Virus record (IMG/VR): IMGVR_UViG_3300038345_000144
Strand: one strand, 5' to 3'
Length of the DNA: 64,000 nucleotides
DNA from: a virus
Lineage: Duplodnaviria; Caudoviricetes
This document shows positions 11,837 to 39,793 of this stretch, one piece after another. The notes under the pieces are model-generated. The model ran no database searches. It had not been told where the DNA came from and was given only the letters and a program-made list of their open reading frames with translations. A program made the translations under genes and the position numbers. Every line of letters starts with the position of its first letter. The first letter of the stretch is position 1.

Positions 11837-13324
11837 TTATGCGACGATGTTCTTGTACCTTTCGGAGGCAAGAATTTCGTTCATAACATCCATAGGTGTC
11901 TTACCAATGTTGTCCATTACCTGCTTCATAATGTTAGGTGAGTAACCAGAAACAAGTGAAACTGCATCATCGGACATTGATGCGTGGAATGTTGCGTTCT
12001 TGGCGTTTACATTCCAGTAAATAACGTGAGGAAGTCTGTAACCTGCTCTCTCGTATCTCTGCTTCATTACATCTGTGAAAGACATAATGCCGTTTCTTAC
12101 GCTGTAAGAACAACCAGAGTTAATCTGCATATCGGAGATAACACAGATTGCTTCAGGCATATCTTCCTGTGCAATATTGTACTTAATACCCATATCGAGT
12201 ATCTTGTCAAATACTGCCTCAAGGTTAGTAGACATTCCTACATTTCCAGAGTGCAAAATCTGGGAGTACATCTGACCAAGAGTATCACCCTTAATCTCAA
12301 TGAGAGAAGGGTTGTCGGAGAAAGTGAAGAACTTGTCCTTGAACTGTCCGACATTCTGCTGTGCAAAGTAGATACCAAGAGCAGTAGCAACTGTCATAGG
12401 GTAAACACCACCTGCACAACTACTATCCCAAGTCATAGAACCTGAAGTATCAATTACGCAGAGTGCCTTTGAAGCAACCTTTGGTAACTGTGACCACATA
12501 GTATTAACTTCAACAGAGTTATCACCCTTAACTACCTTCTGCATAATATCACAAGGGTTAGCAGTACCCATCTGCATCTTCTTCTCACCAGACTGAACCT
12601 GTGAGATAAACTCGTTGTATCTGTCCTCGTCGTGCTTCAAGAAAGCCTTACGGTTCTGAATGTTGCACTTTGAAGGTACAGTCTCGTAGTTAATCTCGTT
12701 CCATCTACCAGTAGACATCTTTGCCTCTGGAATGTCGATTGCCTTTCTCAAAGCAACCAAAGTCTTTCTGTACTGGGACATAGACTTGAAATCATATCCC
12801 AACTTCTTTGCAGTCAATCTACCCAACTGGGCAGTCTTCTGTGAAGATGCGTTAGGAGTTGCAAGCCACTTTGCCAAGAGTGATACAGGCTTACCCTTCT
12901 CAAGGTTTGCCTTATCCTGCTCGAACTGTTCCTTAACGAACGCCCACATAGCATTTTCAGCAGGAGTGTCCATCAAAGAATACAAGTCGTCTGCTCTACC
13001 GTACTCAAAAACATAAGGAATGTTCTTGATAACGGACTCCTTGTGAGTCTTTGCCAAATGTGCGAAAATCTGGTTAAAAGCGTCACGCTCACCGTAACCA
13101 CCACGAATATCTCTTGCGAAGAAGAGCAACTTCATAGCGGCAGTAGCGTCCTCACGATAAGCCTCATCAAACAAATCCAACTTATCAGAGACAGGTGCAG
13201 TTCTCATAGCACCAATTCTACCGAAAAAGTCCAAGCACTTGTTAGAAGTGGAAGTGTAGCAATCTGCACCGTTCCAAGTCTTACCGTGGTTCATTTCATT
13301 AGTCATAGCGTCAGCAAAATTCAT
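11837..13324 (-). CDS. TROVE/DUF2828 + vWA protein (Ro60/Rsr-like RNA-binding protein)
   Basis: LFFARDIRGGYGER, EYGRADDL, SLLAKW; MIDAS DTSGSM and SDMQ; YWNV. Confidence 0.85.
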   Translation of the reverse strand: MNFADAMTNEMNHGKTWNGADCYTSTSNKCLDFFGRIGAMRTAPVSDKLDLFDEAYREDATAAMKLLFFARDIRGGYGERDAFNQIFAHLAKTHKESVIKNIPYVFEYGRADDLYSLMDTPAENAMWAFVKEQFEQDKANLEKGKPVSLLAKWLATPNASSQKTAQLGRLTAKKLGYDFKSMSQYRKTLVALRKAIDIPEAKMSTGRWNEINYETVPSKCNIQNRKAFLKHDEDRYNEFISQVQSGEKKMQMGTANPCDIMQKVVKGDNSVEVNTMWSQLPKVASKALCVIDTSGSMTWDSSCAGGVYPMTVATALGIYFAQQNVGQFKDKFFTFSDNPSLIEIKGDTLGQMYSQILHSGNVGMSTNLEAVFDKILDMGIKYNIAQEDMPEAICVISDMQINSGCSYSVRNGIMSFTDVMKQRYERAGYRLPHVIYWNVNAKNATFHASMSDDAVSLVSGYSPNIMKQVMDNIGKTPMDVMNEILASERYKNIVA

Positions 13325-13419: not shown

Positions 13420-13477
13420 AAGACTCGCTTTTTCACTCTACCCATTAGAATTTTGTAAAAATTGCTGTATGAGTCTT
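13420..13477 (-). ncRNA. Y-RNA-like element A (AAGACTC stem, ATACAGCAA)
   Basis: AAGACTC/GAGTCTT stem; conserved ACAGCAA; in the leader of the Ro60-like gene. Confidence 0.75.
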
Positions 13478-13502
13478 TACCTTTATTCAATTGTGTAGCA
13501 AC

Positions 13503-13569
13503 GAGACACTGTTGTTTTTTTGATGGCAAGAATATCAGTCTTTATAAATATAATTGCTGTGTGTGTCTC
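13503..13569 (-). ncRNA. Y-RNA-like element B with Ile(GAT) anticodon stem-loop
   Basis: GAGACAC/GTGTCTC stem, ACACAGCAA, AAGA-CTGATAT-TCTT. Confidence 0.8.
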
Positions 13570-13581
13570 AACTATGTATTG

Positions 13582-23453: not shown

Positions 23454-23466
23454 ATAATAAAAAAAA

Positions 23467-23535
23467 TACGACGGCGGGGGTCGAACCCACATCTTCGGCT
23501 TTCCCACCGAAGTTTTACCATTAAACTACATCGTC
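23467..23535 (-). pseudogene. tRNA-like element with non-canonical GGGAAA anticodon loop
   Basis: Good D and T arms; 6-nt loop; no CCA. Confidence 0.65.
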
Positions 23536-23634
23536 TTCTACCCACAATAACCAGTCCGTGTCTTTGAGACTAATTAGAATGAATAGGACTTAAACTACTC
23601 AACTTCGACTCTCATCTTGTAGTATAAGAATTTG

Positions 23635-27429: not shown

Positions 27430-27497
27430 GGTAATTTTTGAGAAGAATTACCAAACTCCTTACCGAGCCAAGTTTTGAATAGACCTGACGAAACTAT
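27430..27497 (-). ncRNA. Two tandem H-type pseudoknots (27430-27460, 27467-27497)
   Basis: AGGAG/CTTCT + GGTAATT/AATTACC; ATAG/CTAT + GTCAGGT/ACTTGGC. Confidence 0.65.
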
Positions 27498-27511
27498 ATT
27501 AAACTGTAAAC

Positions 27512-27636
27512 AAGACACATTTTTTTGCGTTCCTGCTCTACCAACTGAGCTACCTCCCCATTGGCGGGAAGGGTTGGACTCGAACCAACGACCAGGGGTT
27601 TGACAGACCAAGCGATAAGATTGCTGTGTGTGTCTC
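27512..27636 (-). ncRNA. YrlA-type Y RNA: permuted tRNA module in the AGACAC/ACAGCAA stem, with Asp(GTC) loop
   Basis: Order T arm, CCTTCCC-GCCA-AT-GGGGAGG closed acceptor, D arm, enclosed by AGACACA/TGTGTCT. Confidence 0.85.
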
Positions 27637-27645
27637 AAACAGCAT

Positions 27646-27678
27646 TGGTGATAAGTTTTTGCAGAACCTAACAAACTG
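27646..27678 (-). ncRNA. H-type pseudoknot family member ending in CCA
   Basis: CAG-TT-TGTTAGGTT-CTG-CAAA-AACTTATCA-CCA. Confidence 0.65.
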
Positions 27679-27692
27679 TTTTTTTAATTAAC

Positions 27693-27761
27693 AAGACCCG
27701 TTTGTTTCAGAGGTTTTTGATTATCAGTCAAATTCTAAAATAAGATTGCTGTATGGGTCTT
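27693..27761 (-). ncRNA. Y-RNA-like element D with Ile(GAT) anticodon stem-loop
   Basis: AAGACCC/GGGTCTT; ATACAGCAA; TTTGA-CTGATAA-TCAAA. Confidence 0.85.
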
Positions 27762-27780
27762 AAATTTGGTTACTGATAAC

Positions 27781-27868
27781 GAGACACGAAATTTTTATGG
27801 AGTCGAACCATATAAGTTTGAGTTGCAGTCAAATTTTTTACCGATAAGTAGATTGCTGTGTATGTCTC
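27781..27868 (-). ncRNA. Y-RNA-like element E with Cys(GCA) anticodon stem-loop and T arm
   Basis: GAGACAT/GTGTCTC; ACACAGCAA; TTTGA-CTGCAAC-TCAAA; ATGG-TTCGACT-CCAT. Confidence 0.85.
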
Positions 27869-27876
27869 AATCAGTC

Positions 27877-27912
27877 TGGTGAATAGTTTTTGGATAGAAC
27901 TAATCAAACTAT
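27877..27912 (-). ncRNA. H-type pseudoknot family member ending in CCA
   Basis: ATAG-TT-TGATTAGTT-CTAT-CCAAA-AACTATTCA-CCA. Confidence 0.7.
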
Positions 27913-27921
27913 ATAAATTAC

Positions 27922-27994
27922 GAGACACAGTTTTTTAAGGGTGTTTCATTAAAAGTAAAATCCTGAAAAATCAAAGAGTTGCTGTGTGTGTCTC
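27922..27994 (-). ncRNA. Y-RNA-like element F with Lys(TTT) anticodon stem-loop
   Basis: GAGACAC/GTGTCTC; ACACAGCAA; TTTTA-CTTTTAA-TGAAA. Confidence 0.8.
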
Positions 27995-28000
27995 AATTTG

Positions 28001-30964: not shown

Positions 30965-31396
30965 TTATCTATCTAAAAATGTTCTAATGCTCATAATAGC
31001 CTGTCTATCTTCAGAAGACAACTTGGAGAACTCTCTACAAAGAATTAAAATTGCCCTAAAAGCACCTTCGTCAATGAAATGATGTGTATTTCTACCTTCC
31101 TTTGCATTGGCTTCATCCTGCTTTTTACAATTCTCCTTCTCCTCTTGAAGTGCCTTCTCAATGTCGGCATCGGTTAAATCGGCATAAGCCTCATAACCAT
31201 CCTTCAAAAGGCGTTGGCGAACAGGCAATAATAAAAAGGCAAACCCTTGTTCATAAGTTGTTGCAATATCTCTGGTCTCATCACTGATGTTCAGCCAGTG
31301 ACCCAACGCTTCATTCTGTTTCTTTTCTTCTGCGGATAATCGTCTTCCCATCTTAAATCTCCTCTCTGATTGCTCCTGCGGAGTCTGCGTCGGCAA
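30965..31396 (-). CDS. Hypothetical protein (start probably MGRRL)
   Basis: GAGGAG before MGRRL. Confidence 0.6.
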   Translation of the reverse strand: MPTQTPQEQSERRFKMGRRLSAEEKKQNEALGHWLNISDETRDIATTYEQGFAFLLLPVRQRLLKDGYEAYADLTDADIEKALQEEKENCKKQDEANAKEGRNTHHFIDEGAFRAILILCREFSKLSSEDRQAIMSIRTFLDR

Positions 31397-32231
31397 AACT
31401 CATAAGCAGGTCGAACTTTTCCTGACCGAGAAATCTTCTCCACTTGTCAAAGTTCTTCTGTGTACGGTCTTTATCCTTCTTCAAGAGCATATGATAGTTG
31501 ACAAGGAAAATACCTTCCAAATCAATAACTCCATCAATAGGGTGGGTAATAAGGTAGTATGCACCAACATTGGCGTGGTCATAGAAGTGATAACACTTCT
31601 TTTCCTCGTCCCAAGTCTGGGTGTATATCTTACCGATGTCGTGGTAAAACACATACTTTTGCTTATTATTATAATTAAATAGTCTATCAACAGCGACACA
31701 ATGCTCATAGACATTTTCCTTGTGCCATTTTGATGTCTGTTCAGTAGCCTTCATTTGAGCCTGAATTTCAGCCTCGTTAAGAGGGGCATTATCACCAATA
31801 ACCCTAATCTCATTGAAACCTTCCTCTCTAAAAGGCATTTCAAAACGGTGGACGAACTTCCAAATGACTGCCTCACCAACAGTTCTATCCCTCTTGCTAT
31901 CCTGCTCAATCGCCTTTTCAACAGGCACAGCAATAACAACAGCCACAAGGTTATACTTGTACTGCTTACCCATATTTACGGCTCTGGACCTATTCTTAAT
32001 GTTGATATTTGTTGCATTGAACCAAACATCATTACCAGCCTTGAGATTTTTCTCAAGTCTTTCGTAAAGCATAGAAAATACCAGTTCATTCTGGGACTGG
32101 TCGTTCACATCGCCTAATTCAGCCCTAATACCATCTGAAGAAAGCACAATATCTGTGTCCTTCTTGTTATGTTCAATGTAATAGTCCTTTCCTGCACCAG
32201 GAATTCCAACCATAATGTAAAGTGTTGACAT
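31353..32231 (-). CDS. Polynucleotide kinase (AAA_33) fused to HD phosphoesterase
   Basis: GIPGAGK, SSDGIR, NATN; WHKE...H, YHDIGK, HANVGAY, YHM, AD. Confidence 0.85.
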   Translation of the reverse strand: MSTLYIMVGIPGAGKDYYIEHNKKDTDIVLSSDGIRAELGDVNDQSQNELVFSMLYERLEKNLKAGNDVWFNATNINIKNRSRAVNMGKQYKYNLVAVVIAVPVEKAIEQDSKRDRTVGEAVIWKFVHRFEMPFREEGFNEIRVIGDNAPLNEAEIQAQMKATEQTSKWHKENVYEHCVAVDRLFNYNNKQKYVFYHDIGKIYTQTWDEEKKCYHFYDHANVGAYYLITHPIDGVIDLEGIFLVNYHMLLKKDKDRTQKNFDKWRRFLGQEKFDLLMSFADADSAGAIREEI

Positions 32232-32285
32232 AAAATCTTCCTTTCAAATTACCCCCGCTTTGATTTTCTCTCTGCGGGGGCTGTT

Positions 32286-32546
32286 TTATCCTATTTCGTC
32301 AAAGGTAATCTGCTGTTTAGCGGGTTCCTTTGGCTTTCTTTTCTTGTCTTGGGGCTTATACGGCTTACCTGTCTCAACATCACCCAAATCAGATAGAGCA
32401 AATCCTTTGCAGTTATTTGCCCTGTTTATGTCCTGTCGGGACATATGTAACTGCTTTTCAGGGTATTTTGAGCATCGGAAGTCGTCAGCCTCAAAACAAA
32501 ACGCACAGTAGCGACAATATTGTTTCATATTGCTCTCCTTACACAA
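32286..32546 (-). CDS. Cys-rich hypothetical protein
   Basis: CRYCAFC motif. Confidence 0.55.
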   Translation of the reverse strand: MCKESNMKQYCRYCAFCFEADDFRCSKYPEKQLHMSRQDINRANNCKGFALSDLGDVETGKPYKPQDKKRKPKEPAKQQITFDEIG

Positions 32547-33705
32547 TCTCGTTCATCCACTTAACAACTCTATCCATAGCGGAAAAGTTGAGTGACCTTC
32601 TGATATAAGCGTCAGCAGTAACAGGCTCTTCTCTATCATTGTAATAGAAAGAAGTAGCCCACATTCCCCACTTCTGCTTTGCGTGAGCCTTAACGAAGGT
32701 ATGTCTATCCATAACCTCGGCATCTGCCTTGCAGTAGTCGAAGTATGTCTCAATAGACTCTACCAATGCGTCAATCTTTGCCTCAACAGCGTCTACCTTC
32801 TCCTTGAAGGAAGGAATATAAGTAGCAATCTCGTAGGCATTTCCCTCTCTGATGAACCAGATAATCTTCTTCTCGGAAGGGTTCTTATATGTAGAGCAAT
32901 AGTGAGCCTGAATATAGTCAGGCGACTTTACCTTAACTCTATTCCAGTTTCCGTCTACTACTACATATCCCTCTCCGTTAAGAGCGTCTGCCTCGGCGTT
33001 CTCGTTCATCATCTTTGCAGAAGCAATACAGTCCTCAAGGGAGTTCAAATTGTACTCCTTTGGCTTCTTTACTCCAATATCAGTAACCAACTCAACACCA
33101 GTTGCATTACATCTTGTTCCAGTATGATAGATAGTTGTCTTCTCATAAGGAACAACAATAGTGCAGTCAGGTGATACCAACTCAAAGATATATGTGTTTG
33201 CAGGGTCAAGTCTGGAGTAGTCCAATGCTACATCCTTTGCTCCCTCGTCAAACAACTGTCCGAAAGACTTTCCAGTAGAAGTATAGGAACCTACATTAGC
33301 ATAAGCGTCAATAGTACCATTAGTAGCCAACTCCCACTTTCCATTGTAGAAATACAACTTCATAATGGAACCGTCTACCTTCTCCTGTACTCTTGCAGTA
33401 TTCCAGTCAATATGGTCAGCATAAGGCTCACCATAATTACCGAACTTTCTGAAAGGGAAGCATACTACATCAAGAGTGTTGAGGTCCAAAATGATACCTC
33501 TTGCCTCCTGAACGATAGGATTTGCAAAGTCGCATCCTATTCCATAGTTAAATATAGCCCTACCGTCGGCAGACTCCTTTACACCAATTCCCAAGTCCTC
33601 GAAGTCCTGTCTCCAATTAGCAGGGTGGTTTGAAATATAAGTAGCAATTAAAGAATTCTCGTTCATAACAACATCTCCTTTTGTGTTATGAACAAATGAT
33701 AGCAT
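32539..33705 (-). CDS. T4 Rnl1-type RNA ligase
   Basis: EARGII, PFRKFGNYGE, motif I EKVDGS, FELVSP, EGYVVV, KVKSPDY. Confidence 0.9.
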   Translation of the reverse strand: MLSFVHNTKGDVVMNENSLIATYISNHPANWRQDFEDLGIGVKESADGRAIFNYGIGCDFANPIVQEARGIILDLNTLDVVCFPFRKFGNYGEPYADHIDWNTARVQEKVDGSIMKLYFYNGKWELATNGTIDAYANVGSYTSTGKSFGQLFDEGAKDVALDYSRLDPANTYIFELVSPDCTIVVPYEKTTIYHTGTRCNATGVELVTDIGVKKPKEYNLNSLEDCIASAKMMNENAEADALNGEGYVVVDGNWNRVKVKSPDYIQAHYCSTYKNPSEKKIIWFIREGNAYEIATYIPSFKEKVDAVEAKIDALVESIETYFDYCKADAEVMDRHTFVKAHAKQKWGMWATSFYYNDREEPVTADAYIRRSLNFSAMDRVVKWMNEIV

Positions 33706-34731: not shown

Positions 34732-35961
34732 TTATCCTTCGAGGTCAATAGTTTGATTTGATTTCTTCCTATTTTTAACTAAAAAGATACAAAGTAAGAG
34801 TGAAACTACATAAAGTACCGTAGCCACAGATACTATCAATAAGTAATTGTCATTAGACGCTTTAAGCAGTAACTCGGAGGTATTGTTACCTGTAATACCC
34901 GCAACTGCCCACGCTGACAGGGTGATACCGTGAATTTTTGAGATATTCTTCATACCAAAGCGGGACTCAAGGAGTGCAGGTAGCGTGGAGAAACCACCAC
35001 CGTAGCCCAAATTAACAATCATTAACAGGGCAATAATCAGGAACCCGTCATAGCCCGCAATACCCGTAACCATACAGATTACAATGCAAGATATGAAGAT
35101 AATCAGGTAAACCGTGCTTCTATCCTTCATCTTATCAGACACCGTAGAGTAGCCGATACGACCAAGAGCGTTACATACAGCAGTTACCGACGGTACTACA
35201 CTGATAATGGTAGCCAAGATTGCCATTCCTGCAAAAGTAGTGTTCAAAAACTGCTTCTCATAGGTAATAAGCATCAGACCGCAGTGAATATTCAGGTAGA
35301 AAATGAGCCAAATACCAATGAAGGTCTTGTTCTTAAACAGGGACTTAACCTGAAATTCGTTATTTGTAGCCTTATTTTCGACCCAACCTTCAGGCTTTTT
35401 CAGGAGAAGGTGTCCAGCGAACATCATTATGAAGTAAATACCGCCTAAAATTATAAACATAGCGGAAATACCTACCGTATTCTGGAGATATTCCATTATA
35501 GGAGTAGCAATAGCCTTTGCCAGACCAAATCCCATAATAGAAATGCCCGTTGCCAAGCCCTTATTGTCCTTAAACCATAACATCAAGGTCTTAACAGGGG
35601 TTAAATAACCAATTCCCAGACCAATTCCCATAATACAGCCGTAACAGATATACAGCAAAATCAGGGCTAACGGTCCAGTGCAAAATTTTATAGTAAGTCC
35701 AGTACCAATCATACCTGTTGTGAAGCAAATCGCTGAAATCAACGAGGATTTATGGATGTTTAACTCCACCAATTTGCCCGCAAAGGCGGCAGACATTCCC
35801 AAGAAGAATATTGCCAGTGAAAACGCCCAACCAACAGCAAACGGGGACATCCCTATCGCTGTGGCGATACTCTGCTTAAAGGTACTCCAGCAATAAACCG
35901 TTCCGATTGAACAGTGAATGAGCAACGCTGGAATTGCCGACCTAATCCATTTTTCCATCAA
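34732..35961 (-). CDS. MFS transporter, OFA (oxalate/formate antiporter) family
   Basis: 12 TM pattern; IGTVYCWS, GIGYLTPVKT...WF...KGLATG, YGGGFSTLPA. Confidence 0.9.
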   Translation of the reverse strand: MMEKWIRSAIPALLIHCSIGTVYCWSTFKQSIATAIGMSPFAVGWAFSLAIFFLGMSAAFAGKLVELNIHKSSLISAICFTTGMIGTGLTIKFCTGPLALILLYICYGCIMGIGLGIGYLTPVKTLMLWFKDNKGLATGISIMGFGLAKAIATPIMEYLQNTVGISAMFIILGGIYFIMMFAGHLLLKKPEGWVENKATNNEFQVKSLFKNKTFIGIWLIFYLNIHCGLMLITYEKQFLNTTFAGMAILATIISVVPSVTAVCNALGRIGYSTVSDKMKDRSTVYLIIFISCIVICMVTGIAGYDGFLIIALLMIVNLGYGGGFSTLPALLESRFGMKNISKIHGITLSAWAVAGITGNNTSELLLKASNDNYLLIVSVATVLYVVSLLLCIFLVKNRKKSNQTIDLEG

Positions 35962-39191: not shown

Positions 39192-39793
39192 GATTTGTAC
39201 CTTGAAAACTATATATAAAGAACGAGCCTTCGCTCTACCCGACTATATCTTCACTGTTATTAGGTCACATACGAAGTACAGGCTGTGCAACAGGGAGCTA
39301 CCCTATTACATCTGTACCCCACCTTGCGGTCAAGGTATGGGGGGAGTGCTTACCCCCACCTTTCAGGGACCATTCAGCAATTTCCTAAAGATACATTCGT
39401 AAATGTAAGAAGTTGCCCTTACCCTACTCGGAAAGTTCGCAAGTGTTATATCAGCATTTCTGCTGTTTCACGGCAAATCCCCTTATTGATATTCCCAAAG
39501 GTGTCAAACAGTCATCGGCTAATCGTCCTTTTTGGGTTCTTCTAACCTTTCGGGTTAGCGTCTATTACGGAGACCACTCGCTCTCTACCCTACAATGCAA
39601 TATAGTGAGTGCCATACCTTTTACTTATGACCTTTTGAGTCTTCACCTAACCCATCGCTGAATTAGGTGCGGACCACCTTTACTGGCTATCGTCAGTATC
39701 AGTGCCGAGCACTTTTCGGTATGCCTCGACGAAGGTGGTCAACCCCCGTCTGCATCGAGTTGTAAATTATATACAGATTTCAAGGTGCAAATC
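39192..39793 (-). ncRNA. ~600-nt structured ncRNA (ROOL/GOLLD-class candidate)
   Basis: Own promoter and terminator, 16-bp terminal stem, GNRA/UACG hairpins, no credible ORF. Confidence 0.7.

Follow-up and report, generated by a model that had tools for sequence, protein, structure and literature searches.

Genomic setting of the array

The stretch of DNA analysed here (the window; 64,000 nt of the IMG/VR virus record IMGVR_UViG_3300038345_000144, Caudoviricetes) carries on its minus strand 45 tRNA genes and a tmRNA, some of the tRNA genes being only 4-11 nt apart. CCA is encoded in 42 of the 45 genes, and three of them are tRNA-Asp(GUC) genes of normal order. The same tRNA island holds an array of four small RNAs, one of which, the 125-nt element at 27636..27512 on the minus strand, is the subject of this report. 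Its two ends pair into a stem, and the motif ACAGCAA follows the 5' strand of that stem; together these are called the handle. Three sister RNAs of the array (27995..27921, 27868..27781 and 27762..27692, minus strand) have the same stem and ACAGCAA architecture, as have two more RNAs (13570..13502 and 13477..13420, minus strand) immediately upstream of the gene for a Ro60-like protein. The handle of the element is thus common to five other RNAs of the window. It occurs in hundreds elsewhere and also closes RNAs without any tRNA parts.

The sister RNA at 27868..27781 carries non-permuted D, anticodon (loop CUGCAAC) and T arms without an acceptor stem, and the tRNA model scores it 19.4 bits. In the sister at 27762..27692 the cargo is only an anticodon-like hairpin, UUUGA-CUGAUAA-UCAAA. 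The spacers of the array (27637-27691, 27869-27920 and 27470-27511, minus strand) share a hairpin-forming sequence, AGUUU(G)...AAAACU, which may act as a signal for processing or constitute a further small element. A scan for sigma-70 promoters found none on the minus strand near the array, and the array RNAs are probably cut out of a transcript of the tRNA cluster. The Logan assembly of another run (SRR1725612, L113) is 100% identical to the window across 4055 bp that include the entire four-RNA array. Because this independent assembly comes from another sample, the element is not an assembly chimera of two tRNA genes, the outcome that the earlier note on this DNA had named as its own possible refutation.

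Several other features of the window's minus strand deserve mention. At 31353-33705, a few kb from the array, an RNA ligase of the T4 Rnl1 type is adjacent to a kinase (AAA_33) with a fused HD phosphatase, and the two form a tRNA-repair pair. The relative L111 also encodes Thg1 (L111:19831-20634). A full-length ROOL RNA (Rfam RF03087, 324.7 bits) is found at 39205-39783. At 23465-23536 there is a tRNA-like gene with an 8-nt anticodon loop. ARAGORN reads its anticodon as 'ggaa', and its score with the Rfam tRNA model is 43.7 bits; it is possibly a four-base decoder or a decayed tRNA. The gene at 34732-35961 encodes a transporter of the major facilitator superfamily (Pfam MFS_1, E 5e-24), an unusual cargo for a phage.

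Structure of the element

The terminal stem is formed by the 5' strand GAGACACA (27629..27636) and the 3' strand UGUGUCUU (27512..27519), which pair through seven Watson-Crick pairs and one G-U pair; all coordinates in this paragraph are on the minus strand. A single C separates the 5' strand from ACAGCAA (27621..27627), and an 11-nt linker follows. The tRNA parts begin with an anticodon hairpin, GGU-CUGUCAA-ACC (27597..27609), placed by ARAGORN and by the sequence itself at tRNA positions 29-41 with the anticodon GUC. Next come CC and UGGUC. Here C42, C43 and U44 (27594..27596) have as long-range partners G28, G27 and A26 (27532..27534), which are also paired in the YrlA alignment. The T arm, GUUGG-UUCGAGU-CCAAC (27573..27589), is seen in the YrlA match described below, by ARAGORN and in an alignment of 18 modules. 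It leads into a closed acceptor (27553..27572) made of CCUUCCC, G73, CCA, the linker AU and GGGGAGG, for which the sequence, ARAGORN and the 18-module alignment agree. After UA, the D arm GCUC-AGUUGGUA-GAGC (27535..27550) has the same three lines of support as the T arm. The chain then runs through A, GG and a 12-nt A-rich linker (27520..27531) to the 3' strand of the terminal stem. This linker, AGGA(U)ACGCAAAAAA, is common to the element and to that of Klebsiella phage KP13-26.

All the segments listed by the earlier note are therefore present and in the order it gave. Its reading of a tRNA 3' half placed ahead of a 5' half, with the acceptor closed between them, describes a topology that matches YrlA. 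Its further claim, that an anticodon hairpin and an internal CCA are retained, was borne out when the element was rejoined at G28-G29 in a script. ARAGORN then returned a tRNA-Asp(gtc) of 76 nt with a 7-bp acceptor, a 5-bp anticodon stem, G73 and CCA. This single 5-bp anticodon stem consists of the local 3-bp hairpin and the long-range pairs of C42, C43 and U44. The universal tRNA nucleotides are all kept (U8, A14, G18, G19, A21, U33, G53, T54, T55, C56, A58 and C61, and G15 with C48).

Because rejoining gives a perfect 76-nt cloverleaf with G73-CCA, the element is an entire circularly permuted tRNA-Asp(GUC), beyond a mere YrlA-type module of T arm, acceptor and D arm. The break of the permutation lies at 28|29, within the 5' strand of the anticodon stem, and AU bridges CCA to G1. 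From the new ends, linkers of 18 and 12 nt lead to the 8-bp stem, with ACAGCAA after its 5' strand.

Single-sequence folding is usually uninformative for tRNAs. The minimum-free-energy fold of the element misses the cloverleaf (-36.1 kcal/mol, versus -31.9 for the proposed structure; z-score -0.9). The folding energy is compatible with the cloverleaf and is by itself no evidence either way. A purpose-built covariance model of the permuted modules scores the element 90.2 bits, and the second-best match in the window, at 40.9 bits, is a junction of tandem tRNA genes. The element is beyond chance expectation.

Permuted relatives and covariation

Eighteen modules, each from a different contig and chosen for paired T, acceptor and D arms, were aligned (alignment A3). 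The helices are conserved and all of them covary. In the alignment 94.2% of the cells are paired, and 19 of the 21 pairs change on both sides, including all seven acceptor pairs. None of 500 shuffles reaches this level of pairing, and controls in which the strands were slid give 26-44%. Pairs 27-43 and 28-42, which played no part in the selection, are 100% paired with at least four pair types each. Since the set was selected for paired T, acceptor and D arms, the anticodon helices are the only unbiased evidence of covariation.

An explicit parse found a complete split anticodon arm, with a 5-bp stem and a 7-nt loop, in 16 of the 18 modules; L001a and L023b have no anticodon arm. The class as a whole thus conserves the anticodon hairpin, which is no quirk of the element. 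U33 and a purine at position 37 are both present in 15 of the modules. The breakpoints range from 26|27 to 31|32, and the anticodon types include Asp, Asn, Lys, Thr, Gln, Tyr, Arg, Leu, Ser and Val. The tRNA body of the element itself carries GUU, UUU, UGU and other anticodon loops elsewhere. Of about 35 modules, 5 have GCCA after the acceptor 3' strand, above the expectation of 1 in 64 per site. In most relatives the acceptor is sealed by short or stable loops (such as UUCG, GUAA and GAAA) without CCA, so that the family as a whole does not operate through a free, chargeable end.

Exhaustive un-permutation of the relatives with ARAGORN had been tried and was too permissive; the explicit split-arm parse replaced it. 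The covariance model also matches junctions of tandem tRNA genes, with scores up to about 60 bits (L088, L089), and for this reason its 275 hits and the alignment A4 were left out of the counts.

Two relatives have unusual arrangements. In Vibrio phage PhiImVa-1 (ON042477; L002:2963-3205) the design is nested: a permuted tRNA with GCCA holds a second tRNA-like unit in its acceptor loop, and the inserted unit has its own ACAGCAA in the anticodon region. GenBank annotates part of this nested element as a suppressor tRNA (tRNA-Sup-TTA). A Bacteroidia metagenome-assembled genome (OZ252261; L119:4051-4140) carries the same tRNA body with ACAGCAA 3' of the D arm and then a stem strand, that is, the handle in rotated order.

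The Ro60-like protein and the handle RNAs

The presumed protein partner, encoded at 11837..13324 on the minus strand, is a 495-aa protein with Pfam matches to DUF2828 and DUF7788. It has a Ro60 fold, as seen in an AlphaFold model with a pLDDT of 85. In a structure search the 13 best PDB matches were all Ro60, Rsr or TROVE proteins, including a phage Ro60, and were full length with E values of 4e-9 to 8e-5. Alignment to a canonical phage Ro60 by hhalign gave a probability of 94%. No TROVE match was found in 20 of the window's larger ORFs, and the DUF2828/DUF7788 gene is the only Ro60-fold gene found there. The DUF2828 protein has more than 3600 homologues, and a protein atlas places the family in eukaryotes as well.

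The association of the motif with the gene was assessed in 80 IMG/VR loci around DUF2828 homologues. These came from an alignment-based scan, a single-protein query having given one locus. ACAGCAA occurs in them 239 times on the gene strand versus 45 times on the opposite strand, mostly just upstream or downstream of the gene. A closing stem, counted if it had at least 7 bp within 150 nt, is present at 52% of ACAGCNA sites beside DUF2828 genes and at 18% of random or opposite-strand sites. The closing stems of the family comprise 93 different sequences. The family design is a covarying stem of 6-9 bp with ACAGCNA 0-3 nt further on, and the element conforms to it with its 8-bp end stem, one base and ACAGCAA.

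The element and the DUF2828 gene are on the same strand and in the same tRNA island, 14 kb apart. In other contigs a permuted-tRNA member lies within 100-300 nt of a DUF2828/DUF7788 gene. L111, which is 80% identical, has two ACAGCAA motifs just upstream of the gene, in the equivalent position; its sequence was covered to 10 kb from the gene, which falls short of the expected place of the array. The contig of the closest IMG/VR relative, whose protein is 71% identical, has no permuted module at E 1e-8. RNAs with the ACAGCAA handle are covered by no Rfam family, and a literature search did not find a link of DUF2828 or ACAGCAA to Y RNAs.

The same tRNA body on different handles

The tRNA body of the element recurs on a canonical Y RNA. 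In the contig L084 (IMGVR_UViG_3300006056_000001) it is identical at 62 of 65 positions (95%), including the GCCAAU loop, with a compensatory change of A5-U68 to U5-A68 and the loop GUU instead of GUC. The L084 RNA spans the full YrlA model, including the Ro60-binding motif CGAAUGC, at 56 bits. It adjoins the gene for a 529-aa protein that matches vWA_Ro60 (68.6 bits) and TROVE (30.9 bits). The earlier note had held that the element ties the ACAGCAA family to Y RNAs independently of the protein, and this near-identical body beside a TROVE/vWA_Ro60 gene provides that tie. The identity of the GCCAAU loop is not significant as a sign of constraint, because only about 1.3 changes would be expected. 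A metagenome scan for an acceptor with the GCCAAT loop on the element's body returned the L084 contig only.

The same tRNA body with anticodon-like hairpins is found in five Paenibacillus species, with a TROVE gene in two of the three searched. Such hairpins are thus present in unannotated YrlA-type RNAs of Paenibacillus as well as of phage L084.

Among five viral contigs that share the body, handle type and protein type sort together. DUF7788 without TROVE accompanies the (A)CAGCAA handles of two contigs, and TROVE without DUF7788 accompanies the handles of the CGAA or UACAUKG type in the other three. This partition is small but clean, and it speaks for selection of the protein by the handle, with the tRNA body as an exchangeable cargo. 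The third kind of handle, a helix with UACAUKG (GGACUACAUUG or GGACUACAUGG), carries the same body in L092:1981-2068, L096:3826-3912 and L121. In the contigs with this handle the Ro60-like gene is only borderline for TROVE, at 22-23 bits.

A probable Y-like RNA with a tRNA mimic as cargo

The element is likely to be the gene for a non-coding RNA of about 125 nt with two modules, a Y-like partner of the phage's divergent Ro60 paralogue in which a tRNA mimic is the effector. The first module would be the handle, consisting of the 8-bp end stem with ACAGCAA on the 5' strand, and it would serve as the docking site for the DUF2828/DUF7788 protein (11837-13324), in the manner of a Y RNA, which docks on Ro60 by its terminal helix. 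The second module would be the complete permuted tRNA-Asp(GUC) body. The chain would enter it at position 29, pass through the anticodon loop, T arm, acceptor 3' strand, G73-CCA, AU bridge, acceptor 5' strand and D arm, and leave after position 28. Since the permuted body is complete, the RNA should fold into a full L-shaped tRNA look-alike, which would be held on the protein ring. There it might engage proteins that recognise tRNA, such as processing or modification enzymes, anticodon-directed nucleases or the phage's RNA-repair enzymes, in a setting of host-phage contest over tRNA. We infer both the binding of the RNA to the DUF2828/DUF7788 protein and the nature of what the mimic would recruit or decoy; its function as a tRNA mimic is conjecture.

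The context agrees with a Y-like partner RNA, namely the Rnl1-like ligase and the kinase/HD phosphatase, the 45 tRNA genes and the tmRNA. Against it count the distance of 14 kb from the DUF2828 gene, the minimum-free-energy fold that misses the cloverleaf, and the 71%-identical relative without the module.

The Y-like partner RNA could also be opened at its acceptor. A 7-bp acceptor, U at -1, G+1 and G73-CCA favour cutting by RNase P, and the element offers this good context in full. We regard a cut between U-1 and G+1 as a real possibility, though less likely than not. If it occurred, a chargeable end would be plausible in the element, though for the element only, in view of these same features and of the precedent of M. 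smegmatis. There YrlA, whose acceptor likewise has 7 bp, undergoes cutting by RNase P and gains CCA in vivo (PMC4201824). In the full version of this scheme the AU would be trimmed, AspRS would charge G73-CCA, and a two-piece aminoacylated mimic would be held together by the handle. The occurrence of GCCA in the relatives above the rate expected per site is in its favour. The sealed acceptors of most relatives speak against it as the family's mode, and the loop identity in L084 adds nothing significant. In addition position 38 of the element is A, versus the C38 that belongs to the E. coli Asp identity set. On balance opening followed by charging is unlikely.

There is similarly a slim chance, smaller by a little, that the element's G73-CCA is functional in the strongest sense, with RNase P cutting, trimming and AspRS charging leaving the Ro60-like ring to carry an aminoacylated two-piece tRNA-Asp with its anticodon. 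If this were true, the charged particle could enter or jam steps at EF-Tu or the ribosome, or engage toxins that attack charged tRNAs or those with QUN anticodons. The varied anticodon loops of the family would then be baits for particular host weapons directed at tRNA.

The earlier note had assigned the element to the YrlA type. The topology stood. Family membership did not: the Rfam YrlA model (RF02553) matches 27596..27532 at 38.9 bits (E 4.8e-7 in a search of 611 nt), covering model positions 24-84 with all pairs standard. This local match misses the gathering threshold of 69 bits, and it is absent from a window scan at that threshold. The Ro60-binding helix of YrlA has a GNCGAAN0-1G (CGAA) motif on its 5' strand (PMC4201824, PMC12135203). 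Neither the element nor its flanks contain CGAA; ACAGCAA follows the helix instead.

The element might all the same be an ordinary member of YrlA, partnered with a canonical Ro60/Rsr from the host or from another part of the phage genome. The model does match its tRNA-like part, and its body is nearly the one found on a YrlA-type RNA whose neighbour is a canonical Ro60 gene. The sub-threshold score over part of the model, the terminal helix with ACAGCAA in place of GNCGAA, the lack of a TROVE match in the larger ORFs searched in the window, and the sorting of handle with protein in the five body-sharing contigs leave this explanation with a very small probability.

We give still less credence to a true permuted tRNA-Asp gene, in which the handle would be a processing signal. 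The transcript would be cut at 28|29, the ends joined by the Rnl1-like ligase with the kinase/phosphatase, and the acceptor opened by RNase P and 3' trimming to yield a working tRNA. Much in the element looks suited to this: the perfect cloverleaf with its universal nucleotides, G73, GUC and an encoded CCA such as most of the phage tRNA genes have, the ligase and kinase genes 4-6 kb away, and the many different canonical anticodon loops in related modules. The phage, however, already has three tRNA-Asp(GUC) genes. Most relatives have acceptors sealed by UUCG, GUAA or GAAA and lack CCA, L001a and L023b are without an anticodon arm, and the breakpoints vary. A bulge-helix-bulge was looked for at the ends of the element, which form a continuous 8-bp helix with no 3-nt bulges 4 bp apart, and the same handle closes RNAs that have no tRNA parts. 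We know of no nuclease for a cut at 28|29.

The earlier note had also proposed an origin from tandem tRNA-Asp genes. This finds no support in the phage, whose three tRNA-Asp genes agree with the un-permuted element at only 40-46 of 76 positions and are among the window tRNAs least similar to it. A normal-order tRNA-Asp(GUC) with the element's D arm and T arm is absent from the GTDB species genomes, and the element is therefore no exact copy of a catalogued cellular tRNA-Asp. An older origin of the family's ancestor from a tRNA dimer is possible, and it is reasonable because 42 of the 45 tRNA genes encode CCA and some lie 4-11 nt apart. That the element is a functionless and decaying remnant of a pair of neighbouring tRNA genes, or else a chimera of the assembly, has next to no probability: it does lie inside a dense array of closely spaced tRNA genes, and tandem junctions do score well with the covariance model, but the independent assembly is identical, the acceptor strands are mutually complementary as in the 18 covarying relatives, every universal tRNA nucleotide is intact, and the handle is that of five other RNAs in the window and hundreds elsewhere.

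Significance

Ro60/Y RNA particles are known in animals, in bacteria and in a few phages, and the DUF2828/DUF7788 protein family numbers thousands of members in phages and bacteria. In the element this design takes its most explicit form, a whole tRNA with anticodon loop and CCA set on a different handle for a different Ro60-like family. Canonical Ro60 partner RNAs bear the same body, which speaks for an exchange of cargo between the two systems and for the handle as the determinant of the ring. The anticodon loops, varied yet canonical, suggest that the role of these RNAs concerns anticodon-reading proteins. Three points are new here: a whole tRNA-Asp that has its CCA encoded, a canonical Ro60 partner RNA with nearly the same cargo, and the sorting of handles with proteins.

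Comparison with known systems

Soma and colleagues reportedly described circularly permuted tRNA genes in Cyanidioschyzon merolae and its relatives in 2007. The permuted genes of C. merolae mature through a bulge-helix-bulge, the splicing endonuclease and a circular intermediate, and give working tRNAs. As in those genes, the 3' half of the element comes first, the acceptor linker is short, leader and trailer pair, and the whole tRNA is kept. Unlike them, the element is broken in the anticodon stem (28|29), and its closing helix is the shared handle associated with a protein.

The dictyostelid Class I RNAs (Rfam RF01414) are 42-65 nt long, have no tRNA module and are reported to be unique to Dictyostelia (Kjellin et al. 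2021, PMC7919456). Like the element they have a short terminal stem and then ...ACAGCAA on the 5' strand, the stem covarying and the motif fixed (PMC7919456), and the ends of the element resemble their AAG...CUGU. They are eukaryotic and have a 6-bp terminal stem and an 11-nt CCUUACAGCAA-like motif; the element is 125 nt long with a tRNA module. The RF01414 model, with a threshold of 41.5 bits, gave no match on the element; on the sister RNA at 27760..27692 it gave 18.9 bits (E 0.86), which is below the threshold. The resemblance is one of design level only, stem plus ACAGCAA.

The closest comparison is with YrlA (RF02553; Chen et al. 2014). The helix of the element carries ACAGCAA and not GNCGAAN0-1G, and its presumed partner belongs to DUF2828/DUF7788 and not to Pfam TROVE. 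It has a complete anticodon arm and an encoded G73-CCA, neither of which is described for YrlA in the sections of PMC4201824 considered here. Judged from its sequence, the element would work like a YrlA-type Y RNA, yet it falls short of YrlA in threshold, motif and neighbour. The common ground is the order of T arm, loop-closed acceptor stem and D arm. In both RNAs, moreover, the two ends pair into a helix, which in YrlA docks the protein, and the partner, presumed in the case of the element, has the Ro60 fold.
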